A stretch of DNA of 58,107 nucleotides from an uncultured Arcobacter sp. (GTDB lineage: Bacteria > Campylobacterota > Campylobacteria > Campylobacterales > Arcobacteraceae). The DNA lies in NCBI GenBank assembly GCA_964445915.1, contig CAYUNC010000001.1, forward strand, positions 1-58,107, in the 5' to 3' direction. Each line of letters starts with the position of its first letter. Within the stretch, counting starts at the first letter, position 1. The translations under genes and the position numbers were made by a program. Under the pieces are notes generated by a model. That model saw only the letters and a list, made by a program, of their open reading frames with translations, did not search any database and was not told the origin of the DNA. Positions 6,682-19,836 of this stretch are shown piece after piece.

Positions 6682-7803
6682 ATGTCAACATTTAGTGATT
6701 TAAGAAGAAAGATTGATAAATCAGTCAAAGGCGTTCATATATCAATTCTAGCTGATAGTGAAATTGCAAAAATTGATCAATGGATACAAGCACCAACATA
6801 CGATTTTAATAGAATTTTGTCTGGGTCATTGAAAAAAGGTATTCCTGTTAAATCTCATGTAGTAATGGTTGGACCAGAAGCATCATTTAAAACAAGCTAT
6901 ATATGTCTTTTATTAGTTGATGCCTTAAGAAAAGGGCTAAAACCGGTTATTATAGATACTGAAGGATCATGGACTAATTCTTTTGTAGAAAGATGGGGTT
7001 TAGATCCAAGAAAGGTACTTTATATTTATACTCCTTTCACAACAGAAGCTATGACAGTGCTTAGCACCATAAGAGAATCAGATGAAGAAGGATTTGCTAT
7101 CGCTGTTGATTCTATAGGAGGTTTAGAGAGAAAAAAGTTGTTTGATGATACTCTAAGAGGAGATCATAAAGCAGATCAAGGTATCCTACAAAAAGAAATA
7201 AAACAGTTATTGAAAATGTTAGTTAATATTTGCAAATCTAAAAAATCAATAGCATTTTCTTCTGCACATTATTATGGTGATCCATCTGGTTATGGTTCAC
7301 CTGAAAAAGTTGGTGGTGGAAAATACTTAAAGTTATCGGCCGATATTCTTATTAGTCTTAAAAAATATGATATAAAGGAAATAATTGATGGTAAAAGTGT
7401 CATAACTGGAACTGGTTTGACAGCTTGTACTCTAAAAAACAGATTCTATCCTCCATTTAATGAAACTGAGATTGAAATAAACTATATTAGCGGTATAAAT
7501 AAGTACGTTGGTTTATTGAATATTTGTAAAACTGCTGGTATTATCGAACAAAAAGGAGCTTGGTATACATATCTCAAAACTGGTTGCAAATTTTGTGGTG
7601 TTAAAGAAGTAATGAAATTCTTTGAGTCAAATAAAGATATTATTGATGAAATTGATGAATATGTTAAAAATACTGGTTATAGTAATATAAATTATGAAGC
7701 TGCCAAGTTATATAATAAAGAATCGAAAAAAAATGATGACGAGAAAGAAGAAGAAAAAATAAGAATCAAAAAAATAAAAAAAGATAAAGAAGGAGTAGAT
7801 TAA
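6682..7803 (+). CDS. uvsX: RecA/UvsX-family recombinase
   Basis: Walker A GPEASFKTS, Walker B-like AIAVDSIGG, and RecA-like length. Confidence 0.7.
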   Translation: MSTFSDLRRKIDKSVKGVHISILADSEIAKIDQWIQAPTYDFNRILSGSLKKGIPVKSHVVMVGPEASFKTSYICLLLVDALRKGLKPVIIDTEGSWTNSFVERWGLDPRKVLYIYTPFTTEAMTVLSTIRESDEEGFAIAVDSIGGLERKKLFDDTLRGDHKADQGILQKEIKQLLKMLVNICKSKKSIAFSSAHYYGDPSGYGSPEKVGGGKYLKLSADILISLKKYDIKEIIDGKSVITGTGLTACTLKNRFYPPFNETEIEINYISGINKYVGLLNICKTAGIIEQKGAWYTYLKTGCKFCGVKEVMKFFESNKDIIDEIDEYVKNTGYSNINYEAAKLYNKESKKNDDEKEEEKIRIKKIKKDKEGVD

Positions 7804-8258
7804 TGTTAATAAGAAAAATGAAGTTCAGATTAATTAAAGTAGATTATGATATTGTTCGTGATAATAATATTAATACTTTTACTGCTTGTATTTTAGCTAG
7901 GAACCAAGAAGAAATCTTAAAATTTCTTAGGCAAAGGGTATCTCCTAATATAAGAATTATTTCATTGTCTGATCAAGGAATAGTTGACGCATTAGCAACT
8001 GATTTTGAAAAATACATGGAAAATGTTATAGTAAAATCTTTATTAGAGCAAGGCAAAATTGAAATAAAGAAACCATCAGAACAAAAGGATGTATCAGAGC
8101 AGGATAAAATTGAAGTAAATAAACCATCAGAACAAAAGGATGTATCAGAGCAGAATAAAATTGAAATAAATGAACCATCAGAAACAAAGGATATATCAGA
8201 GCATGAAGAAGCCATCAGAAAAAGTAAACAACTTAAAAAAATTAGAAATATTAAGTAA
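7803..8258 (+). CDS. Hypothetical protein with 3 x 17-aa acidic repeats
   Basis: TAATG overlap with the upstream gene. Contains KIE(I/V)xKPSEQKDVSEQ repeats. Confidence 0.6.
   Translation: MLIRKMKFRLIKVDYDIVRDNNINTFTACILARNQEEILKFLRQRVSPNIRIISLSDQGIVDALATDFEKYMENVIVKSLLEQGKIEIKKPSEQKDVSEQDKIEVNKPSEQKDVSEQNKIEINEPSETKDISEHEEAIRKSKQLKKIRNIK
8055..8207 (+). repeat. 3 x 51-bp tandem coding repeat
   Basis: Units at 8055, 8106 and 8157, starting AAAATTGAA. Confidence 0.85.
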
Positions 8259-8637: not shown

Positions 8638-8708
8638 GTCGTAAACTTCATCACTTTATGGTGAATATTAGGCATCTTGCGAAAATAGAAAAAAATTAAG
8701 GTTGTCTC
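8638..8708 (+). ncRNA. 5' module (hairpin and junction) of the second copy of the structured element
   Basis: Homologous to 12672..12741: GTCG(T/C)AAAC..TCA(T/C)CAC..; AATTAA(G/T)GTTGTCTC. Confidence 0.4.
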
Positions 8709-8839
8709 CAATATAGATGAGATATCAAACTTATTTAGACTACGGTAAGAAGTACAAACCCAAAAGATTTTCAATCAGATGGTACTCTGCAAAAAATCAC
8801 ATCACTTTAGTGCAAACGAAGTATTATGTCACTATAGTC

Positions 8840-8848: not shown

Positions 8849-8919
8849 AAAATATGTCGGCCATATTCTGGCTAAATAAAGATTGCCCATGAAAACAGCA
8901 AAAAAATATATTATTTTTA

Positions 8920-8949
8920 TTTACATTATCCATATTTTTGTGGTATAAT
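8920..8949 (+). promoter_or_regulatory. Sigma70-type (early) promoter
   Basis: TTTACA, 18-nt spacer, TGgTATAAT (extended -10). A/T-rich UP-like region upstream. Confidence 0.5.
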
Positions 8950-9005
8950 AAAATCAAAAAAAGGAGATGCCAATGTAAAACTTAAATTTATTAATTTTAA
9001 ACACC

Positions 9006-9154
9006 TTAAATACCAGGGTCTTCAGTAATTAATTGTAACAACATCATTCAACCAGGACATAGGTATCTAATGTAACTAATATGAGTTGGATGTTCTGCAA
9101 CGCAACTTTATTCAATCAAGATATTAGTTCAAATTAGAAGACCCTGGTATTTAA
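9006..9154. repeat. 18-bp perfect inverted repeat enclosing a 113-nt loop
   Basis: TTAAATACCAGGGTCTTC (9006..9023) pairs with GAAGACCCTGGTATTTAA (9137..9154). Confidence 0.85.
9039..9130 (+). pseudogene. Isolated, frame-disrupted DUF285 repeat unit
   Basis: Reads SFNQDIG then (frame break, ~9 nt missing) [22 protein letters not shown]. Closest by eye to repeats at 60..150. Confidence 0.6.
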
Positions 9155-9213
9155 TCGTGATGGAAACCGAAAACAACAAAAAAGGAGATAACATGTTACA
9201 GAAAGGTTATATC

Positions 9214-9495
9214 TAACACTTATTCAAACTATAATAATAGACACAAACACAAGGGACGTATATACTCACTGTCCGGCTTGTAAGTTTCAGTCTTATTGTA
9301 ACATAGTTGATTAAGTAATTATGAATAACCAGATAAAATTCCTGCTTCGTAGATCACCAAGCATCGTATCCTGTATCTTACAGGTTATGCGTAGACGCCG
9401 GGACACCGGCCAAGGAACTCTCAGTCAGAGGGTACCCCTTGTAGCTTGCAGATGTTTGCAAGAAGCCGCATCACTTTAGTGAGAGCGGAGTGTCA
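9214..9495 (+). ncRNA. 3' body of the second copy of the structured element
   Basis: About 75-80% identical (hand alignment) to 12736..13006. Hairpins are conserved. Confidence 0.5.
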
Positions 9496-9602
9496 CGATA
9501 ATTTCTACTATGTCGGCAAGAATGGTGCAGTCAGAGTCGGCAAAAACATCAGAGAATCAGTATCATTGACAGATTTCTTTAAGAAAAAATTAGGGGGCTA
9601 AT

Positions 9603-10054: not shown

Positions 10055-10067
10055 ATAATTGAAATAT

Positions 10068-10110
10068 ACTGTCTTGTTAGTGTTAAACACTAACAAGACA
10101 GTTTATTATG
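10068..10110 (+). terminator. Intrinsic terminator-like hairpin
   Basis: Arms ACTGTCTTGTTAGTGTT and AACACTAACAAGACAGT (17 nt each, near-perfect), followed by TTATTAT. Confidence 0.55.
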
Positions 10111-10225
10111 TAATGTCATTTAGCCAAGACATAAATCAACCTGAAAACACCACAAGATTTTGATGGAAACTCTGGTATTTAATAAATTAATAATCTGAAA
10201 ACAGCAAGTACATTATTTTTTTTTA

Positions 10226-10254
10226 TTTACATCATTTATTTTGTACGATATTAT
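10226..10254 (+). promoter_or_regulatory. Sigma70-type (early) promoter
   Basis: TTTACA, 17-nt spacer, TATTAT. The upstream CTGAAAACAGCAA...ATTATTTTT block is shared with the promoter at 8920. Confidence 0.5.
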
Positions 10255-10314
10255 TAATTTACTCCGGATTTGTTACATAAAATTTTGGGAAAACAGTATA
10301 TAAAACAATGGAAC

Positions 10315-10346
10315 ACTGTCTTAGTGTTAAACACTAGTAAGACAGT
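10315..10346 (+). promoter_or_regulatory. 5'-UTR stem-loop homologous to the hairpin at 10068
   Basis: ACTGTCTTAGTGTT..AACACTAGTAAGACAGT. Lies ~60 nt downstream of the promoter at 10226 and 40 nt upstream of the gene at 10386. Confidence 0.45.
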
Positions 10347-10385
10347 ATTTGGCTAAACAATATATATCAATGGAAAGGACTTAAA

Positions 10386-11068: not shown

Positions 11069-11145
11069 GCCGTCGTGGTGGTAATTGGAAACACAAGGGT
11101 CTTGTAAACCCTCTAATGCAGGTTCGAGTCCTGCCGACGGCTCCA
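11069..11145 (+). tRNA. tRNA-Thr (anticodon UGU), CCA encoded
   Basis: Hand fold: acceptor GCCGTCG/CGACGGC; anticodon arm AGGGT-CTTGTAA-ACCCT; T arm GCAGG-TTCGAGT-CCTGC; 5-nt variable loop. Confidence 0.85.
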
Positions 11146-11150
11146 TATAT

Positions 11151-11245
11151 GCCCCTGTAGTTTAACGGTAAAACACCCGGCTTATACCCGGCATCAGGCT
11201 CCAGATTAGAGCGTATTCTTGGTTCGAATCCAAGCGGGGGCACCA
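11151..11245 (+). tRNA. Atypical 92-nt tRNA (+CCA), best read as anticodon UAU (Ile, AUA) with a 25-nt extra arm
   Basis: Acceptor GCCCCTG/CGGGGGC, D arm GTTT-AACGGTA-AAAC and T arm CTTGG-TTCGAAT-CCAAG. Two successive 4-bp/7-nt-loop hairpins have loops CTTATAC and CAGATTA. Confidence 0.6.
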
Positions 11246-12215: not shown

Positions 12216-12671
12216 GTGGAAAACAGAAAACTTCTAATGGTAGTTGAAAATGTTTTATACGATATAGTTGATGTCGATACAAAAAATCCATATCTTGATG
12301 TTGTTATTACCAATTCAGGTTTAAAGTTTATGGTGTCTCCTCTTGAAAATTCAGATGATAGATATAATGCAGTATCATTTTATTGGTATGAAATGATAGA
12401 AAATAATCCGGAAAAATTTGTAGAAATAGTAGGTATCGATAGATTACTGAGTTGGGCTATGAGAGAAAACATTATTGATGATGATTTTTGCACTAGTGGC
12501 GATAATATTGATGATTGGATATATAATATGGAACCCTCTTTTTTGTTCGATGTAGAAAAAAAAGAAAGAAAATGTATAATGAATAACTGGCTTAAAGAAG
12601 AGTTATCTTTTGACTTAAAATGTAATTTTTTTATTGCTTATTTAATTGAAAATGATAGAAATTGGCTTTAG
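12216..12671 (+). CDS. Hypothetical protein (GTG start 5 nt after AAGGAGG)
   Basis: The ORF-track TTG start at 12201 overlaps the SD itself. The GTG at 12216 has normal spacing. Confidence 0.55.
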   Translation: MENRKLLMVVENVLYDIVDVDTKNPYLDVVITNSGLKFMVSPLENSDDRYNAVSFYWYEMIENNPEKFVEIVGIDRLLSWAMRENIIDDDFCTSGDNIDDWIYNMEPSFLFDVEKKERKCIMNNWLKEELSFDLKCNFFIAYLIENDRNWL

Positions 12672-13006
12672 CCCGTCGCAAACCTCACCACTAAAGTGGT
12701 AGAGGTTAGGAAGCGGACGGAATTAATGTTGTCTCTAACACTTACTATAGTAATAGACACTATATACCCACTGTCTGGCTTGTAAATTTCAGTCTTATTG
12801 TGACATAGTTGGTCAAATAATTTATAAATATGAGTAACCAGGTAAAATTTCTGTTATGTTAAAATTATTAAGCATCGTATCCTGTATCTTACAGGTTATG
12901 AGTAGACGTCAGGACACCGACCAAGGGACCTTTATTCAGAGAACATCCCTTGTAGTTTGCAGATGTTTGCAAGAAACCGCATCACTTTAGTGAGAGCGGA
13001 GTGTCA
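12672..13006 (+). ncRNA. Unclassified structured RNA element, uninterrupted copy (~335 nt)
   Basis: ORF-free. Nested hairpin at 12673..12720, followed by a body alignable to 9212..9495 with compensatory changes. Confidence 0.5.
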
Positions 13007-13041
13007 TGAATATCTTTAATAACAAATAGAGGAGGTGTAGT

Positions 13042-13881
13042 GTGAGTCAACTCAAGTATATGCATGAAACTTTTTTATACCCAGTAGTAAGAGTAGGATG
13101 TAAAGGAGTAGGTGGAAGTGGTACTCTAATATATTCTAAACTAACTGAAGACGGCGATGATTGCCATAGTTTTGTATTGACGAATCATCATGTTATAGAT
13201 AAATGTATTAATATTAAAAAAGAATGGAATTCTATTGTAAGGAAAGAAGTTAAAGTTGATGTTAAAGAAGCTTGTTCTGTTGAAGTATTTCAATATGTTA
13301 GATTATCAGAGGTTAATTCATCTAATAGATACAGAGCTGACATTATAGCATATGATGCTAATCATGATCTAGCAGTTTTAAAAATTGATAGTCCTTTGAA
13401 ATTTGAATATGTATCTAAAATTATTCCTGAGGAAAGAATAAAAGAGTTAAAGTTATATATGGATGTTGTCTTGACTGGATGTTCTTTATCACATGATCCT
13501 TTTAGTAATTTTGGTCAAATTACATATTTAAATGAAATCATAGAACAAAAGCAATATATCATGACGAATGCATCCAGTATTTTTGGTGTATCTGGTGGTG
13601 CATTGTTTTTAAAAGAAACAGGTGAATTAATTGGAGTTCCAAGTAGAGTTCAAGGAATGCAATTAGGATTTGGTGTTAGTATTGTAGATTTCATGGGTTT
13701 TGCCGCGCACCCTGGAAGAATCTATGAATTTATAAAAGATCAAGAGTTACACTTCTTAGTTGATCCAACAGATACATATGAAAAAGCAATGGAAAGAAGA
13801 AAAAAACGTGAAAAAGATTATTTACTACAAACTGAAAATACTGAAGAAATGGAACAAGTTAAACCAGTAGAAACAAATTAA
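13042..13881 (+). CDS. Trypsin-like serine protease
   Basis: Catalytic-triad contexts TNHHV (His), DLAVLKI (Asp) and GVSGGALF (Ser). AGGAGG lies 6 nt upstream of the GTG. Confidence 0.75.
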   Translation: MSQLKYMHETFLYPVVRVGCKGVGGSGTLIYSKLTEDGDDCHSFVLTNHHVIDKCINIKKEWNSIVRKEVKVDVKEACSVEVFQYVRLSEVNSSNRYRADIIAYDANHDLAVLKIDSPLKFEYVSKIIPEERIKELKLYMDVVLTGCSLSHDPFSNFGQITYLNEIIEQKQYIMTNASSIFGVSGGALFLKETGELIGVPSRVQGMQLGFGVSIVDFMGFAAHPGRIYEFIKDQELHFLVDPTDTYEKAMERRKKREKDYLLQTENTEEMEQVKPVETN

Positions 13882-13905
13882 CTATCTTATTTTATTGTCA
13901 ATTGA

Positions 13906-13936
13906 TGTCTTGCTGGTATTAAATACCAGCAAGACA
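13906..13936 (+). terminator. Hairpin after the protease gene (no U-tract)
   Basis: 14-bp stem TGTCTTGCTGGTAT/ATACCAGCAAGACA. Confidence 0.35.
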
Positions 13937-13938
13937 AT

Positions 13939-13989
13939 AAAGGAGAATTGTCGTTTTCCTAATATCAGATTTTTTACGGCATATATATA
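13939..13989 (+). promoter_or_regulatory. Split-SD leader hairpin L4 (reduced version)
   Basis: AAAGGAGA, a 6-bp basal helix TGTCGT/ACGGCA, then CATATATATAATG. Confidence 0.5.
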
Positions 13990-15414
13990 ATGACTAAATT
14001 TTCTAAATTTTTAAATGAAGAAGAAAATTTTTTAAAAAGATGGATAGAATATTGTAAAAATATGCCAATGTTAAAGTATGCTGTTGAAATTTTAAAGAAA
14101 ATTGAATCTAAAAAATATCGTGCTTATATTGTTGGTGGTTGTGTACGAGATATTGTTTTAGGTAAAAAACCTAAAGATATTGATATAGCTACTAACTGTC
14201 CTGTAGAAATATTAGAGGATTTATTTAAGGTATATGATATTGGTAAGTCAAGAGATTTTGGTATAGTAACAACTAACTTAGGAGGTTTTTCTTATGAAAT
14301 AGCTCAGTTTCGTCAGGATGGAAATTATACTGATGGCAGAAGACCAGAATCAGTTGAAATTTGTCAATCATTTAAACAAGATGCATCTCGTAGAGATTTT
14401 TGTTTAAATGCAATGGCAATTGACAGTAAAGGCAATATTATTGATTATTTTGATGGTCAACGAGACATTAAAAATAAGATAATAAGAGCTGTTGGCAATC
14501 CACATGATCGATTTGAGGAAGATCGACTTAGAATGTTAAGAGCAATAAGATTTTCATCAAGACTAGGTTTTGATATTGAAAAAGAAACTGCTGCTGCAAT
14601 AAAATTTAATAAAGAGAAAATAAAATCTTTAGCGCCGGAGAGAATAAGAGATGAATTGGTAAAAATGGCATCATCTTCTGGTGATAAATTTGCTGATGCT
14701 ATTTTGAAAATGGATGAACTCGGAATATTGGAAATAATATTACCAGAAGTTGTTAAAATGAAAGATTTTGAACAAAATATTGACCATCATCCAGAAGGTA
14801 ATGTTTTTGATCATGTAATAGCTGCATTAAAAGCAAATAAAATAGCGGATCCGTTACTTAATCTAAGTATACTCTTGCATGATATTGGTAAAATAACAAC
14901 TTATAAATTTGATAAAGAAAAAGGACATACATTTTACGGACATGCTGAGGCTGGAAAAGAGTTAATTGATATTATTGCTAAAAGACTAAGATTATCAAAT
15001 AAAGAAAAAGAAGCATTAATTTTTGTTGCCGTAAATCATATGAAATTACATAAAGCAACAGAAATGAAACCTTCAAAGTTAATTAAAATCATTACAGATG
15101 AAAATTGGGAGTTACTCAAAGCTGCAACTTACTGTGATAAAGCAGCAAGAGGAAAATTATTTGATAAAAAAAGATGGGATGAAATTCTAAGCTACATTGA
15201 TGATATTAAAAATAAATGGGGAAATTCTGTAACTAATAATGCTATTAAGCTAATTGATGGAAATAAAGTCATGAAATTAACCGGGTTGAAACCTGGTAAA
15301 AAAGTTGGTTATATAATTAAACATGTTACCAAAAAAATATTAGATTATGGTATAACTAATGAAAAAGATATCGAAAAAGAAATAATGTCTGCTTATCAGG
15401 ATGTTCTTTTATAA
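13990..15414 (+). CDS. cca: tRNA nucleotidyltransferase (CCA-adding enzyme) with C-terminal HD domain
   Basis: GGCVRD...DIDIAT head domain, RRDF motif and HDIGK HD motif. Preceded by leader L4. Confidence 0.85.
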   Translation: MTKFSKFLNEEENFLKRWIEYCKNMPMLKYAVEILKKIESKKYRAYIVGGCVRDIVLGKKPKDIDIATNCPVEILEDLFKVYDIGKSRDFGIVTTNLGGFSYEIAQFRQDGNYTDGRRPESVEICQSFKQDASRRDFCLNAMAIDSKGNIIDYFDGQRDIKNKIIRAVGNPHDRFEEDRLRMLRAIRFSSRLGFDIEKETAAAIKFNKEKIKSLAPERIRDELVKMASSSGDKFADAILKMDELGILEIILPEVVKMKDFEQNIDHHPEGNVFDHVIAALKANKIADPLLNLSILLHDIGKITTYKFDKEKGHTFYGHAEAGKELIDIIAKRLRLSNKEKEALIFVAVNHMKLHKATEMKPSKLIKIITDENWELLKAATYCDKAARGKLFDKKRWDEILSYIDDIKNKWGNSVTNNAIKLIDGNKVMKLTGLKPGKKVGYIIKHVTKKILDYGITNEKDIEKEIMSAYQDVLL

Positions 15415-15994: not shown

Positions 15995-16041
15995 TATTCA
16001 GTACGAATTGTTGTTGAATTATGTTTATCATAAAGTTTAAT

Positions 16042-16060
16042 CATAACAAGTAAATTATTA
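16042..16060 (+). repeat. 19-bp direct repeat, right copy
   Basis: Perfect copy of 15421..15439. Together they bracket the gene at 15446..15994. Confidence 0.9.
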
Positions 16061-16121
16061 CTACATATATTAACAAATTAAATTAATTATTTTATAATTA
16101 AAACTGAAGGATAACATTTTA

Positions 16122-16403
16122 ATGGCAAAATATCGAAAAAAACCAGTAATAGTGGAGGCAGTTCAGTGGAAACAAATGGGGGATCATCCTGCTGTGTCAC
16201 CATTTGAAAGTGATAATCCTAGTGTTCTTTGTAAACATTGTTCACATTATTTTAGTGAACATGGTCAATGTTTAACTCTGGAGGGTAAACATATTGTTTG
16301 CCCAGGAGATTGGATAATAACTGGTGTTAAAGGAGAACTTTATCCCTGCAAACCGGATGTTTTTGAAGCAACTTATAGTTCTTTAGATGAAGAGGAAGAC
16401 TAA
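16122..16403 (+). CDS. Small phage protein (KKPVxVEAxQ...GDWIITG...YPCKPDxFExTY type)
   Basis: AAGGA upstream. The motif recurs in many phage ORFans (from memory). Confidence 0.55.
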   Translation: MAKYRKKPVIVEAVQWKQMGDHPAVSPFESDNPSVLCKHCSHYFSEHGQCLTLEGKHIVCPGDWIITGVKGELYPCKPDVFEATYSSLDEEED

Positions 16404-16425
16404 AAATGTTTACAAAGGAGGACTT

Positions 16426-16947
16426 ATGAAAATAAGGTTAAATCCATTTAACCGAAGTGAATTGCGAAAAGCATTTTCTTTTCTACTAAAAAACAGAGAA
16501 ATCTCAGCTGCTCTCGAGAGCGCTGAGTGGTGTTACATTAAGAAGGCTGACGAGGACTTTTTGGAAAGCAAGCCTCCCACGATAAGATCGTGGGAGGGAA
16601 GGAAAGGAAAAACATATAGTGCGACAAGCACTTGGTTTATACATAATGATCAAATCCTCTCTGGCGCCGTTGAAGCACCTGAGGAGATTTGGTCTACATA
16701 CCTGTGCTCCCAATCCCAAAAATGGGGAGAAAGATATATTGATGCTGTGGGACGGCACGGTGTGCCTCTATACATCTTAACATTTCATAAGCATTTCTTC
16801 TCCTGGGAAGGAGATCAGGAAAAGAATGAGAAGTGGATTGAGATCCGAAAGCTCGGTGAAAGTGCTAAGCTTGTTCTCAAGGAGCTTCAGCTCAACAAGG
16901 ACGAGGCTGTCAGACAAGTAATGGTGGCCTTGTCCGAGTTGGACTAA
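16426..16947 (+). CDS. Hypothetical protein (GC-rich island)
   Basis: The internal ATG at 16426 has AAAGGAGG 5 nt upstream and is preferred over the track start at 16387. Confidence 0.55.
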   Translation: MKIRLNPFNRSELRKAFSFLLKNREISAALESAEWCYIKKADEDFLESKPPTIRSWEGRKGKTYSATSTWFIHNDQILSGAVEAPEEIWSTYLCSQSQKWGERYIDAVGRHGVPLYILTFHKHFFSWEGDQEKNEKWIEIRKLGESAKLVLKELQLNKDEAVRQVMVALSELD

Positions 16948-16959
16948 AGGGAGGATTAA

Positions 16960-17655
16960 ATGATGGAGGAAATGAAAATCTATAAGGAGGACGGAAGTGA
17001 GATTCCATCATATCCAATGGAAATGACAATTACAGCAGAGGAAGTTCGGGTAGTTGGTCGGCTAAGGTCGACCGTCTCTGGGCTTAACTATTCTTGGAAG
17101 TCGAACGTGAGAGAAACGATCTCTTCTCGTTCACCATTCCAGCCATTTGTTGACCTTACCTTTTCGGGTGAGGTCATTATAAGGTTTCTGGGGTGGCACA
17201 AACCGCCCGAGGAACTTATTCCTGAACAGTGGGAGAGTTGGAAATTCCTTTCCTGGGGTGGAAGTCTTGTAAATGCTCCCGTCCAGGTCATGGCCCGAGA
17301 AGTTAAGGACAATACTCAAAGACCAGAACGAGAGGCTCTGTTTGAGCTCTGTGAGAAGGCCAGAGAATACCACACCACAGCCTCTATGAACAAGTTGTGG
17401 GCATGGCATCTCTACAGTGAGCATGGAGTTTCTGAAGAGTTTGAAAAGTTAGGCCGCTTTAACTTTCGCCCAATATACTTGGGTGAATATTGTATCTTTT
17501 CCCCAGCGGGGATTCGCTGGGCAGGTTCGGATCACAAGAAGGTAATCTGGTCATGGGATCAGATTACTATATATCCTCTCGACCAAAAAGAAAGTCCACG
17601 AACTTTAGGAGCCAAAAAGTATTGGCTTCTAAAGGCAGAGCCAAAAGTAAAATAG
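16960..17655 (+). CDS. Hypothetical protein (GC-rich island)
   Basis: GGGAGG upstream. No recognisable motif. Confidence 0.55.
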   Translation: MMEEMKIYKEDGSEIPSYPMEMTITAEEVRVVGRLRSTVSGLNYSWKSNVRETISSRSPFQPFVDLTFSGEVIIRFLGWHKPPEELIPEQWESWKFLSWGGSLVNAPVQVMAREVKDNTQRPEREALFELCEKAREYHTTASMNKLWAWHLYSEHGVSEEFEKLGRFNFRPIYLGEYCIFSPAGIRWAGSDHKKVIWSWDQITIYPLDQKESPRTLGAKKYWLLKAEPKVK

Positions 17656-17723
17656 CCGGAATCGTAAGTTCCGGTCATATGAACCACTTTAATTGTTGCT
17701 AATAAATTAGAGGAAAAAATGAA

Positions 17724-19097
17724 ATGATCCGAACGCACGTTATACCTTGCAATCTGTCTAAAACAAAGGACAGCCAGCAGTTCTTTGCAGCCGGAGCATG
17801 GAGGCCATCCACACTCCATTCTTTTTCTTGGATCCCCCAAAAGACTGAACCTAAGATGGTGGCAGTAGAGCTCTGTTGTGGAATGGGAGGGATCAGTATT
17901 GGCCTTCGTTCGCTTGGATTTCGTACTGTGGGAGCATATGACTCTTGGGATCGGGCAGTAAAGATTTATAATCACAATGCGCCTGAGCCTGTTGCAGTCC
18001 AGTGTGACTTGCTGGATGATGCAGGATACAAGAGGGTTGTATCAGAGTGCCGCAAAATAGGCGGAATAGATCTTCTCGCTGCCGGTCCGCCATGCAAGGG
18101 ATTCAGCCAGTTAGTAAATGGCAAGCATCACATGCCTAATCCACATAATCGTGTTCTCGAGGTTATTCCCGAGTATGTCGCCGCCCTAAAACCAGAACGT
18201 GTACTTATTGAGAATGTACCGAATTTGATTCGCCATGCTAAGGGGCAAACTTTTGCTGATTTTATAAGACGGTTGCAAGCGCCGGGTCCTAAATGTCTCA
18301 AATATTACGTGAGCTACCAGATTTACGACGCTGCGTTATTTGGAACTCCACAAGCTCGAAAACGATTGCTAATCCTTGCTGTCAAGGATAGCAGTGAACA
18401 ACTTCCCTCTCCTGGACCTAATCTTAGTTCTCTTTACACTGCCATACGACGTAACGGTAGAATTTCTTCTTTGCTACAGAAATACATGAATATCCTGCAG
18501 GATGATTGGGATGCGAGAATAGTTTCAGCAAGACAGGCTCTCTCTGATATTCCTTCTCTTGATCCTGGTGTAGAGGAAATTCCACGCCCGTATGCATCGG
18601 AGCCTAAGAGCGCCTTTCAGCAAATCATGCGTGTCGGCTCCCCGAAGATGAAGATGTTGGAGAATACAAAAACACCAGCTGTACGAACAGAGACATTAGA
18701 ACGCCTTCGTCATATTCCACCAGGTGGAAATGTGTGTGATATTCCCGAAAAGTATTTAAACGGTCTTTCACGAAGATTTGGATCTGCATACCGACGATTG
18801 CATCCTGATGCTCCGGCGACTACTCTGTCCACAAAATATGATTGTGTCTATCACTTTGCTTTCCATCGTTCGCTATCAGTACGAGAGTACGCACGAATCC
18901 AAGGAATTCCCGATTTCGTGACGTTTCCCGATAAACTTGCCAACAGATGTAACGCTTATGAAATGATAGGCAACTCCGTACCCCCTCTCTTGGTGCGTGC
19001 AGTTATCGGAAATGTATTGGCTTGTGGGAATAGAGATTCGGTGATAGAAATTGGCTCTAGCTCACCTGCTAATAAATTATCAAATGAAAATTATTGA
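17724..19097 (+). CDS. DNA cytosine-5 methyltransferase
   Basis: Motifs CCGMGG (I), GPPCKGFS (IV), ENV (VI), QARKR (VIII) and GNSVPP (X). About 45% GC in two hand-counted 60-nt lines. Confidence 0.85.
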   Translation: MIRTHVIPCNLSKTKDSQQFFAAGAWRPSTLHSFSWIPQKTEPKMVAVELCCGMGGISIGLRSLGFRTVGAYDSWDRAVKIYNHNAPEPVAVQCDLLDDAGYKRVVSECRKIGGIDLLAAGPPCKGFSQLVNGKHHMPNPHNRVLEVIPEYVAALKPERVLIENVPNLIRHAKGQTFADFIRRLQAPGPKCLKYYVSYQIYDAALFGTPQARKRLLILAVKDSSEQLPSPGPNLSSLYTAIRRNGRISSLLQKYMNILQDDWDARIVSARQALSDIPSLDPGVEEIPRPYASEPKSAFQQIMRVGSPKMKMLENTKTPAVRTETLERLRHIPPGGNVCDIPEKYLNGLSRRFGSAYRRLHPDAPATTLSTKYDCVYHFAFHRSLSVREYARIQGIPDFVTFPDKLANRCNAYEMIGNSVPPLLVRAVIGNVLACGNRDSVIEIGSSSPANKLSNENY

Positions 19098-19434
19098 ACT
19101 ATATGAATATAATACCAAGTTTATTAATGGTAAAGCTATCAGTATTGTAAAAATGCCAAAAGTAGTTCACTGTAAAAAAGACAACTATGATGTTTATATA
19201 GGACGTCCATCCAAATGGGGTAATCCATTTATTATTGGTAAAGATGGTGACAGAAAGGAAGTAATAAATAAATATAAAATATGGATATTAAAACAGAGAA
19301 GTTTGTTAGATTCCCTGCCAGAATTAAAAGATAAAATTTTAGGATGTTGGTGTGCTCCAAAAAAATGTCATGGGGATGTATTAGTAGAACTTTACGAAAA
19401 AATAGTTGGAAAAGATAAATTTAGCTTTTTTTAA
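19084..19434 (+). CDS. DUF4326-like protein
   Basis: YIGRPSKWGNPF and GCWCAPKKCHGDVL motifs. The start is uncertain (19051, 19084 or the internal MPKVV). Confidence 0.6.
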   Translation: MKIIELYEYNTKFINGKAISIVKMPKVVHCKKDNYDVYIGRPSKWGNPFIIGKDGDRKEVINKYKIWILKQRSLLDSLPELKDKILGCWCAPKKCHGDVLVELYEKIVGKDKFSFF

Positions 19435-19467
19435 ATAAAAGAATAATAGTTTTTCTGGAGATTTGAT

Positions 19468-19836
19468 TTGGGTAATTATAATGACTTAATTGCCAGCAAA
19501 ATAATGGGATGGAAACTAAAAAGTAGATTTAGTATTGATGGTGAAGAAATTGATTTAGAGAAAGTTAACGAAGGTAAAGATTTATTAACATATTGTTGGT
19601 GTGATTCCAGCAATAAACCAATTTGTTATAGAGACATGTTTAACCCTGTTAGAAATAAAAATCAGTTAGATTATATAAAAGAAAAATTAAGTATAGACAA
19701 CTTAATTTTTTTTTGTATGAACGGTACAACAAAAATAATTATAAAAAGTAATGGTAAAACTTATAAAGCTTTGGATAAAGATATATCCAAAGCTTTTTAT
19801 TTTGCTCTTTTAAAAATTACAAAAAATTATAACTAA
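19468..19836 (+). CDS. Hypothetical protein
   Basis: TTG start after GGAG. Confidence 0.45.
   Translation: MGNYNDLIASKIMGWKLKSRFSIDGEEIDLEKVNEGKDLLTYCWCDSSNKPICYRDMFNPVRNKNQLDYIKEKLSIDNLIFFCMNGTTKIIIKSNGKTYKALDKDISKAFYFALLKITKNYN

Follow-up and report, generated by a model that had tools for sequence, protein, structure and literature searches.

Repeated hairpin-rich noncoding elements of about 300 nt in an uncultured T4-like phage

The window, by which we mean the whole stretch of 58,107 nt analysed here, comes from an uncultured, AT-rich, T4-like phage, whose genome has a noncoding element in three or more full copies and in one decayed copy. The GC content of the phage genome is 29.6%. 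The copies are spread over about 16 kb and all share the orientation of the surrounding genes. Copies 0, 1 and 2 lie in the window, and the other full copy (copy 3) is found 2.3 kb upstream of it, about 20 nt past a tRNA-Pro gene. Copy 2 is flanked by the stop codon of a 151-aa ORF on its 5' side and by the ribosome binding site (RBS) of a trypsin-like protease gene (13042-13881) on its 3' side; the genes adjoining this copy were annotated by Pfam matches. The features of the locus are as follows.

8639-8836, plus strand: copy 0, a decayed, internally deleted relic (12.4 bits with covariance model R1)
8639-8682, 8694-8763 and 8776-8836, plus strand: parts of copy 0, namely the weak hairpin H0, the element 5' end AATTAAGGTTGTCTCC and a degenerate 3' hairpin region
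9180-9198, plus strand: left gene remnant, RBS AAAGGAG and ATGTT of an 86-aa gene that is intact in sister-strain contig L002
9199-9496, plus strand: copy 1, 298 nt, 5'-truncated relative to copies 2 and 3
9359-9496, plus strand: 3' domain of copy 1, hairpins A 9365-9389, B 9397-9410, C 9411-9441, D 9445-9462 and E 9466-9488, GC 52.5%
9497-9601, plus strand: right gene remnant, last 34 codons and stop of the 86-aa gene (tblastn over 41 aa, 85% identity, E 8e-19)
11069-11145 and 11151-11245, plus strand: tRNA-Thr(tgt) and tRNA-Ile(tat), separated by about 1.5 kb from copy 1 on one side and from copy 2 on the other
12673-12720, plus strand: nested hairpin H2, after a TAG stop (12669-12671) and adjoining copy 2, -23.1 kcal/mol, z -4.3
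12721-13007, plus strand: copy 2, 287 nt, from AATTAATG to AGTGTCAT, nhmmer E=6e-108
12870-13007, plus strand: 3' domain of copy 2, hairpins A 12876-12900, B 12908-12921, C 12922-12952, D 12956-12973 and E 12977-12999, GC 45%

A preliminary description of this DNA had proposed two paralogous copies of about 300 nt. This was borne out by an alignment of 9190-9520 with 12715-13030 and by the 23-mer CCGCATCACTTTAGTGAGAGCGG, which occurs twice against zero expected occurrences. The column identity of the two copies is 87-88%, higher than the 75-80% given at first, and the indels fall at four sites (6, 14, 7, and 2 nt, all within the 5' half) instead of two. The copies differ by transitions of all four kinds. 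The boundaries of copy 1 were set by contig L002, where identity ends after 9197/9198 and restarts at 9497. Homology of copy 1 to copy 3 begins at GGTTATATC (about 9205), identity being 97.5% over the 5' domain and 90% over the 3' domain, and a 14-nt segment is common to these two copies. The mosaic similarity among the copies implies recombination. Copy 0 was found by nhmmer, its 3' part with E=0.0017 and its 5' part with E=0.2. The repeat family and its boundaries are established by these comparisons. The invariant blocks, which measure 31, 19, and 18 nt, are clustered above chance (p 0.003-0.01), suggesting uneven constraint. Between near-identical strains, copy 2 has a SNP density of about 1.3% vs. 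0.35% overall, which argues against strong constraint; the strain SNPs in its 3' domain are at 12917, 12920, 12973, and 12978. Eleven nt (AAACACAAGGG) of the 14-nt segment in copies 1 and 3 are identical to part of tRNA-Thr, a match attributed to chance given the search space.

The site of copy 1 is polymorphic between strains. The sister strain (contig L002) is 99.5% identical and lacks copy 1. At this site it has 151 nt instead of about 300 nt, and these complete an intact 86-aa gene. Thus, copy 1 overwrote coding sequence, namely the 5' two-thirds of this gene. The replacement, which the preliminary description had missed, points to a recombining or mobile repeat. The right gene remnant is fused in frame with the open frame that exits copy 1 (ORF 9446-9601). 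No target duplication was visible at the junctions of copy 1, and homology of the element to the replaced 151 nt was not significant (p 0.07-0.1). The 86-aa protein had zero homologues among 5.8 billion proteins, and a search for further strains with four other proteins of the window returned the same contigs only. Given a sister strain without copy 1 and one decayed copy, individual copies are dispensable.

The 3' 139 nt of the element consist of five consecutive hairpins (A to E), and in copy 1 the domain ends with the 8-nt tail AGTGTCAC past hairpin E. The GC content of this domain in the three full copies is 52.5%, 48%, and 45%, the level of tRNA genes, and only two GC peaks of the 58 kb are higher than that of copy 1. 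Both the GC anomaly and the propensity to form hairpins are established. The consensus fold gave z-scores of -3.1 to -3.4 against column-shuffled alignments, of which 0-1 were equally stable. Single-copy folds gave -4.3, -4.7, and -2.0, the last being that of copy 2 and marginal over shuffles. The minus strand folds equally well (z -3.4 to -4.6). Local folds of the 5' domain vary with the presence or absence of the 14-nt segment. An alternative long-range helix of 9270-9277 with 9397-9405 is kept in 3/3 full copies, and hairpin B accumulates mismatches across copies. The hairpins CCTGTA-TCT-TACAGG and CCGC-A-TCAC-TTTA-GTGA-GA-GCGG (the terminal one) are unchanged between copies, as the preliminary description had noticed.

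The same description had placed a hairpin before each copy. This is correct for copy 2, which is adjoined by H2, but the hairpin assigned to copy 1 (H0, 8639-8682) lies about 520 nt upstream of it and heads copy 0. H0 is weak (-9.1 kcal/mol, z -0.8). Compared by eye from the sequence, H2 and the terminal hairpin E are of the same build: an outer stem, a bulged A, YCAC, a 4-nt loop UWWA, GUGR, a 2-nt bulge, and the outer stem again. Their stem sequences differ and complementarity is retained. The H2 core CCACTAAAGTGG is at most two mismatches away from TCACTTTAGTGA. Among the related-phage loci, the hairpin motif AYCAYTWYAGTGRKA was present only in this phage. H2 and E were also considered as intrinsic terminators and rejected, neither having a T run behind it.

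Differences between the copies had been taken as compensatory substitutions that preserve RNA helices. Hairpin D does show a pair-preserving series, C-G to U.G to U-A, over copy 1, copy 2 and the strain variants. A C-G to U-A change is seen in the long-range helix 84-219 and an A-U to G-C change in helix 110-122. The change from GCCGG/CCGGC to GTCAG/CCGAC contains one compensatory change, as had been proposed, but it also creates an A.C mismatch that had been omitted, and the change from CTCT..AGAG to CTTT..AGAG preserves pairing only with a shifted pairing register. As a set, these substitutions show no excess over shuffled controls. With three copies and two strain variants, four double changes were observed vs. 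1.9 in column shuffles (p ~0.11), and in 161/500 and 117/500 shuffles at least as many pairs had changes on both sides as in the real alignment. One-sided stem transitions compatible with plus-strand G.U vs. minus-strand G.U pairs stand at about 8:6 by a hand tally. We regard an RNA with compensatory substitutions as not established. Of the "structured RNA" originally claimed, the fold z-scores and the tRNA-level GC content are in favor, whereas the covariation test and the equal folding of the minus strand are not. Thermodynamics and composition weakly suggest that the element may be structured.

Rfam 15 at gathering thresholds matched the two tRNAs only. At E<=10, searches with 4.7 kb of the locus and with each copy alone gave chance-level matches (11-16 bits) to snoRNA, miRNA and CRISPR-repeat models. 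Group I and II introns, T-box, tmRNA, 6S RNA and ribozymes were among the families without a match. The label "unclassified" therefore fits both copies, and the suggested link to GOLLD, ROOL, HEARO or group I introns is removed by the same negatives. GenBank phages and PLSDB plasmids gave no blastn match to any of the three full copies, and cultured phages gave no tblastn match to the protease. Conserved-block DNA patterns, scanned as exact or gapped patterns, gave zero matches in IMG/VR (five patterns), JGI metagenomes (one) and GTDB genomes (two). Homologues of the protease led us to 160 related-phage loci (1.1 Mb of related-phage DNA), over which nhmmer and covariance model R1 detected the element in this phage only. 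In these loci the protease gene abuts its upstream neighbour, and the related phages also lack the neighbouring small genes. The family is an orphan, seen in one sparsely sampled lineage. Outside this phage lineage, homologues and covariation beyond the copies, on which the preliminary description had staked its reading, were largely lacking. Transposase, HUH, Y1, TnpB, recombinase and homing-endonuclease domains were absent from the scanned genes (about 68 kb of the incomplete genome). The copies were also compared with the repeat pair of a diversity-generating retroelement; their differences are not confined to adenines and no reverse transcriptase domain is found in the neighbours.

The presence of two tRNA genes within 2 kb of the elements was confirmed. 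A promoter-like site is found at 10226-10254, and the only terminator-like sites in the scan are 10068-10102 and 13153-13165. Because no terminator is predicted between the 10226 site and copy 2, this copy and the two tRNAs are probably one transcription unit. We found no credible promoter conserved between copies. The ORFs that precede copies 0 and 2 showed no significant paralogy in either protein or DNA comparisons.

Neither window copy contains a convincing gene, in agreement with the original view of ORF-free elements, and the gene callers of the assemblies placed zero genes within the body of any copy. It had been argued that the 52-codon ORF of copy 1 is cut to 10 codons in copy 2. This is true when counted from the homologous ATG, but the frame reopens in copy 2 over the conserved 3' domain (12856-12990, 44 aa) and ends at the stop of the copy 1 ORF, so the argument against coding was incomplete. 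The conclusion it served, that the conservation is non-coding, is supported by a dN/dS of 0.83 in the frame of the 52/44-aa ORF, where 13/27 differences fall at codon position 2. Purifying selection is absent in every frame (dN/dS 0.6-0.9) and stops occur in all frames. A hand count over aligned copies and strain SNPs gave 5 nonsynonymous vs. 0 synonymous differences for the peptide frame exiting the element. Stop-masked plus-strand translations reached best E values of 0.02-0.3 with Pfam and PHROG, below curated cut-offs. The lack of coding constraint is established, and on these sequence comparisons a protein-coding role of the element is rejected.

The copies could still be decayed paralogues of a gene for a small, possibly Cys-rich protein, with incidental hairpins. 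In copy 1 a frame of some 95 codons is interrupted by one stop only (THCPACKFQSYC...SIVSCILQVM...CRCLQEAASL), and copy 2 also has one in-frame stop, though at a different position; its insertions of 7 and 2 nt add up to 9 nt, so that the frame is restored on both sides. The open frame exiting at the 3' end joins downstream ORFs in copy 1 (9446-9601) and copy 3 (a 143-aa ORF, L165 7119-7550). Chance alone, however, yields long open frames at 50% GC, and the 6-nt and 14-nt indels interrupt the longer frames. The dN/dS of 0.6-0.9 in all frames, the position-2 changes that dominate the main frame, the lack of any significant Pfam or PHROG match or called gene, and a hairpin content well above shuffles, which is unusual for coding DNA, make this origin quite improbable. 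An intervening sequence such as a self-splicing group I or II intron would explain why ORF fragments adjoin both ends of copy 1 and why the upstream ORFs of copies 0 and 2 extend a few codons into the repeat unit, and about 300 nt is the size of ORF-less phage group I introns. Excision of 9199-9496, however, fuses ATGTT to GATAAT out of frame and leaves the 151 nt of L002 coding sequence still absent. Copy 2 sits between two complete genes, and the Rfam intron models had no match at E<=10. The intron explanation is essentially refuted.

The main rival is that the element is a functionless or selfish DNA repeat, either a non-autonomous hairpin-bounded element or a mosaic patch spread by recombination. 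It would proliferate and decay in the hyperplastic small-gene region of the phage, like a MITE, a PATE or a mobile intergenic cassette of the T4 type, and its hairpins would reflect the ends or the origin of the element and have no RNA function. Several copies in unrelated contexts, their mosaic similarity, the raised SNP density of copy 2, equal folding of both strands and the absence of the family from the 160 related-phage loci all fit such a repeat. So do the presence or absence of a copy between strains 99.5% identical, the filled allele being the one that breaks the intact 86-aa gene, and the decayed copy, which has lost its interior and retains its two ends only. With IS200/IS605-type PATEs, REP/BIME-like repeats and MITEs the element shares its short, ORF-free and multi-copy nature, an internally deleted derivative and the strain-level polymorphism. 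Similar hairpins are found on the same strand at the 5' side (H2 and H0) and at the 3' end (E), the two subterminal positions of copies 0 and 2. Terminal inverted repeats and target duplications are lacking, and on the right the element stops abruptly 8 nt after its hairpin; together these traits recall IS200/IS605-type architecture. Unlike such elements, the allele difference here is a replacement (300 nt for 151 nt) rather than a precise insertion, and copies 1 and 3 lack the left hairpin. Cleavage and guide tetranucleotides of the IS200/IS605 type could not be identified in the element, the genes scanned in about 68 kb encode no transposase, HUH, recombinase or homing endonuclease, and the other genomes searched have zero copies. 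The polymorphism is recent, yet copy 1 differs by 12-15% from copy 2 and, in the 3' domain, by 10% from copy 3, and so was not newly copied from either. Neutral junk at 30% GC would also not be expected to be GC-rich or to have its invariant blocks clustered. On this balance a plain DNA repeat is possible but somewhat doubtful. A function in cis at the DNA level is very improbable; examples would be a signal for replication or priming, a hotspot of recombination, or clustered binding sites of a dimeric DNA-binding protein. It would be consistent with the near-palindromic TCACTTTAGTGA, whose core occurs within the 58 kb only in the H and E hairpins beyond chance-level matches, with equal hairpin propensity on both strands, and with the use of several origins by T4-like phages. 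Against it, the outer stems are divergent yet complementary, a better fit to a folded single strand than to a duplex operator, one copy is dispensable in the sister strain, and the copies lack iterons and an AT-rich unwinding element.

The reading we tentatively prefer, while giving it less than an even chance, is a lineage-specific RNA-level module that is transcribed together with tRNAs and mRNAs and has been propagated through recombination. From the common orientation of the copies and the adjoining tRNA or hairpin, both established, and from the other features above, we infer transcription, processing, RNA stability and any function. The element, with no promoter or terminator of its own, would be passively transcribed from the plus strand in early or middle operons bearing tRNA genes. 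A stable structure upstream, either the post-stop-codon hairpin (copies 0 and 2) or tRNA-Pro (copy 3), would be followed by a single-stranded AAUUAA stretch in three of the four copies. Endonucleolytic processing at the AAUUAA region, for which tRNA 3'-end trimming enzymes or RNase E/III-type enzymes are candidates, may release the 5' end of the element. The GC-rich five-hairpin 3' domain, with its sharp end 8 nt past the terminal hairpin, may then persist as a stable small RNA, or alternatively act as a protective structured leader of the downstream cistron. The family would have multiplied in the genome via duplication and recombination between copies.

GOLLD, ROOL and HEARO are two to three times longer than the present element, conserved in many genomes, and show strong covariation. 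The element resembles GOLLD (RF01998), ROOL (RF03087) and HEARO in its phage setting, tRNA proximity, lack of ORFs and multiple hairpins, but it has no covariance-model match at E<=10, is confined to one lineage and shows no significant covariation. The promoter-early stem-loops (PeSLs), mobile regulatory cassettes of T4-type phages, and the intercistronic RNase III hairpins of T7-type phages are repeated intergenic stem-loop modules that have been tied to module shuffling. They stand directly after stop codons in polycistronic units and are far shorter, each being recognised by a promoter or by one processing hairpin. The element is like them in being a repeated intergenic stem-loop unit in a plastic early region of a T4-like genome, and unlike them in its length of about 300 nt, its GC-rich domain of five hairpins and its lack of a credible conserved promoter.

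A bolder version of the RNA-level module, which we consider unlikely as a whole, sees in the elements a new class of stable phage RNA, about 300 nt long and trans-acting, that is kept as several paralogues. Cleavage beside a tRNA or a tRNA-like hairpin would release these RNAs from operon transcripts that contain tRNAs. They might, for instance, be decoys or cofactors connected with the tRNA and RNA-repair genes nearby (CCA-adding enzyme, RlaP and NADAR), and would be a larger, multi-copy counterpart of T4 rnaC and rnaD. If the element is a processed RNA, it would be a second example for the 50-year-old puzzle of the stable RNAs of the T4 tRNA cluster and would tie such RNAs to tRNA-repair and CCA-adding functions of phages. 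If it is a mobile or recombining repeat, it would be a noncoding module that, in a natural phage population, overwrote the beginning of a gene, and would inform the turnover of plastic regions in T4-like genomes.

T4 rnaC and rnaD, also called species 1 and 2, are stable RNAs whose expression has been shown and whose function is unexplained (PMC9697503). Like them, the present elements are noncoding, occur as more than one unit per genome and belong to a contractile-tailed phage, and copy 3 shares their same-strand position 3' of a tRNA gene, about 20 nt past tRNA-Pro. Local alignments of the element with T4 rnaC and rnaD did not score above shuffles (p 0.05-0.84), and covariance model R1 found nothing in the T4 tRNA region. 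The T4 RNAs are 119 and 139 nt long and restricted to the tRNA cluster, whereas the elements here are about 300 nt and dispersed, two copies following hairpins and one overwriting a gene. The order in T4 is tRNA-Arg, 1 nt, rnaD, 6 nt, and rnaC.

The element, an ~300-nt hairpin-rich repeat, is a true orphan family of noncoding repeats, and its hairpin content is real. The repeat reported in the preliminary description was confirmed and is conserved more strongly than was estimated there, copies 1 and 2 showing 87-88% column identity across ~300 nt; their indels, counted too low before, fall at four sites (6, 14, 7, and 2 nt), all within the 5' half. The copies and two further genes are as follows.

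9199-9496, + strand: copy 1
12721-13007, + strand: copy 2
8694-8836: copy 0, decayed and internally deleted (nhmmer E=0.0017)
L165 6864-7169: copy 3, full, on the contig that extends upstream of the window, 2.3-2.6 kb before position 1 (nhmmer E=1.5e-100; covariance model 145.9 bits)
L002 51-311: 86-aa ORF (MFGTYNTYKKGCRKGQCK...DNFYYVGKNGAVRVGKNIRESVSLTDFFKKKLGG) on a sister-strain contig, allele of window 9194-9601
13990-15414: CCA-adding enzyme gene

The right end of the element is sharp, as the sequences of copies 1, 2, and 3 cease to agree exactly 8 nt (AGTGTCAY) past the foot of the terminal hairpin. The left end is less sharp: AATTAA is common to copies 0, 2, and 3, coming after a hairpin placed immediately 3' of a stop codon in copies 0 and 2 and after a tRNA in copy 3, and copy 1 is truncated. 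The hairpin at 8639-8682 had been taken to precede copy 1; it exists, but it lies ~520 nt upstream and belongs to the decayed copy. Copy 3 starts ~20 nt 3' of a tRNA-Pro(tgg) gene, which is preceded by an RlaP-family RNA-repair-type gene. An ORF of 143 codons (L165 7119-7550, ~2.3 kb before the window), whose product is rich in S, T, Q, N, and G, starts within the 3' end of copy 3, its ATG being in the loop of hairpin D without a Shine-Dalgarno sequence, and its frame is the one that joins the gene remnant 3' of copy 1. The element either displaced the true start of this ORF or itself provides the start. In-frame junctions at the element 3' ends were found in 2 of 2 cases (copies 1 and 3; p ~0.11).

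The sister-strain contig is 99.5% identical to the window across 6.9 kb and contains copy 2 without copy 1. The window's 300 nt (9197-9496) are replaced there by 151 unrelated nt, with no significant similarity to the element, which complete an intact 86-aa ORF having a strong ribosome-binding site and ending 2 nt before the start of the next gene. The window retains the ribosome-binding site plus ATGTT and the last 34 codons of this ORF. Thus, copy 1 overwrote coding sequence, and by sequence comparison the polymorphism arose by replacement rather than by clean insertion. A search of 5.8 billion proteins gave no homologue of the 86-aa ORF. Identity between copies 1 and 3 is 97.5% in the 5' domain; in the 3' domain it is 88-90% for each of the three copy pairs, and site patterns are mixed. 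This mosaic similarity indicates recombination between copies. Strain SNPs in copy 2 (4 in ~290 nt) are denser than the 0.35% found across 6.9 kb overall.

Several observations favour a structured RNA. The 3' 139 nt of the element (3' domain) form five consecutive hairpins, A-E. The consensus folds better than column-shuffled alignments (z -3.1 to -3.3; 0-1 shuffles as good), and single-copy folding gave z of -4.3, -4.7, and -2.0 for copies 1, 3, and 2, respectively. The GC content of this domain is 45-53%, equal to tRNAs, where the genome averages 29.6% (sd 6.4%), and copy 1 comes third when all 140-nt windows are ranked by GC. Runs without variation (31, 19, and 18 nt) are clustered beyond chance (p 0.003-0.01). 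The closing pair of hairpin D changes from C-G to U.G to U-A across copy 1, copy 2, and copy 2 strain variants, and helix 110-122 changes from A-U to G-C. All copies retain a long-range helix that pairs 9270-9277 with 9397-9405, via one compensatory and one G.U change; the local hairpin B drawn previously gathers mismatches instead. Folding and sequence give an identical build for the post-stop hairpin before copy 2 (12673-12720) and terminal hairpin E, whose stems differ in sequence yet are complementary. Against a structured RNA, the fold of the 5' domain changes depending on the presence of a 14-nt segment.

The earlier central claim, that compensatory evolution proves a structured RNA, fails statistically: 4 compensatory pairs were observed against a mean of 1.9 in column shuffles (p 0.11). 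In pair-count controls, 161/500 and 117/500 shuffles reached the observed counts. Only 9 of 500 shuffles reached the covariation score on one alignment, but in such a comparison related sequences may outscore shuffles even when no structure exists. Folding of the minus strand is just as good (z -3.4 to -4.6). Because the mutation spectrum of this phage is almost all transitions (23/24 strain SNPs), every one-sided stem change is a wobble on one strand or the other, and a hand tally of plus- versus minus-strand wobble gave ~8:6. The folding and covariation results therefore establish hairpin content, not RNA-level selection.

The element was found in this phage alone among all sequences searched. 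In related phages, nhmmer and the covariance model detected no homologue in 160 related contigs (1.1 Mb around homologues of the protease gene next to copy 2), where the protease gene abuts its upstream neighbour. GenBank phages and PLSDB plasmids did not contain it. Exact-pattern scans, eight in total, across IMG/VR, JGI metagenomes, and GTDB genomes gave no match; such scans are blind to diverged copies, thus absence from metagenomes is weakly shown. No Rfam family matched, which excludes GOLLD, ROOL, HEARO, group I/II intron, T-box, and known ribozymes and leaves the suggested GOLLD/ROOL kinship unsupported. A terminator was rejected since the hairpins have no following U run, and a DGR repeat pair was also rejected. 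The closest functional analogy is with T4 rnaC and rnaD, stable RNAs of still unknown function directly after tRNA-Arg (PMC9697503); they are not homologues, and no homology to the element was found.

We tentatively read the element as an RNA-level module, which is quite possible. It would be transcribed within plus-strand operons that also hold tRNAs; copy 1 is downstream of a strong promoter-like site (8920-8949), and no terminator-like site was predicted between the promoter-like site 10226-10254 and copy 2. Beyond transcription, we infer that cleavage beside the upstream tRNA or hairpin, at single-stranded AAUUAA, would free the element, which might persist as a stable RNA or as a structured leader shielding the downstream cistron. 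Its significance would grow if wider homologues or expression data revealed a processed RNA. The main rival, a selfish or neutral DNA repeat, is somewhat unlikely. It draws support from the overwritten gene, a decayed copy of which just the ends are left, the mosaic recombination between copies, the higher density of SNPs, the restriction to one lineage, and an IS200/IS605-like layout with neither inverted repeats nor target duplication, in which copies 0 and 2 have similar hairpins at both ends and copies 1 and 3 lack the 5' one; however, the empty and filled alleles are imprecise, no transposase was found in ~68 kb, and the 3' domain is GC-rich and unevenly conserved.

That the element is a decayed small gene is improbable. 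The preliminary argument against coding, that the 52-codon ORF of copy 1 is cut short in copy 2, was incomplete, as the frame reopens across the conserved domain (12856-12990) with the same stop; coding is still rejected. In this frame dN/dS between copies is 0.83 and 13 of 27 differences fall at codon position 2, dN/dS in other frames is 0.6-0.9, and stop-masked plus-strand translations had no significant match in Pfam or PHROG. A DNA-level site is quite improbable, and an intron is hardly credible: excision shifts the frame and leaves 151 nt of exon missing.

The window is a phage genome segment (29.6% GC) with T4-type tail and baseplate genes (gp19, gp25, gp5, gp6-like), a UvsX/RecA recombinase, an SbcC-like nuclease, DNA methyltransferases, and two tRNA genes. 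Near-identical contigs are in ENA assemblies ERZ27227322 and ERZ23491060 and JGI sample 3300013103. The nearest protease relatives are only ~60% identical at the protein level and come from sediment and groundwater metagenomes; cultured phages searched with the protease gave no match. A GC-rich island (16000-19500; 36-42% versus 29.6% overall), which may be a horizontal acquisition, carries a DNA cytosine methyltransferase and several unknown ORFs. The 410-aa ORF at 22736-23968 matches the trimethylamine methyltransferase (MTTB) family (E 5e-16), an auxiliary gene not expected in a phage. Three tandem 51-nt repeats (8041-8206, 83-89% identical) within a 151-aa ORF (7803-8258) encode a repeated 17-residue peptide. 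The tRNA at 11151-11245, called Ile(tat), is 95 nt long with an encoded CCA end and a ~27-nt variable arm; this length and type II shape are unusual for isoleucine and make its identity questionable.

Just downstream of the promoter-like site 8920-8949 and upstream of copy 1, a 149-nt element (9006-9154) ends in perfect 18-bp inverted repeats (TTAAATACCAGGGTCTTC ... GAAGACCCTGGTATTTAA), has a folding energy of -45 kcal/mol (z -5.3), and matches nothing in Rfam; a further structured leader or sRNA is possible, as is a MITE-like insertion. Intergenic gaps at 10063-10107, 10311-10350, and 13894-13948 hold three long hairpins of near-identical sequence (ACTGTCTTGTTAGTGTTAAACACTAACAAGACAGT and variants), the first having a T-rich tail and scoring as a terminator. 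Promoter-region modules are repeated at 8890-8936 and 10196-10242, and together the two families are reminiscent of the mobile promoter/stem-loop cassettes found in T4-type phages. Right after the promoter-like site 8920-8949, a strong ribosome-binding site is followed by a minimal start-stop ORF (AAAGGAGATGCCAATGTAA; 8958-8980), and its ribosome-binding stretch is similar to that before the overwritten 86-aa gene (9178-9198).
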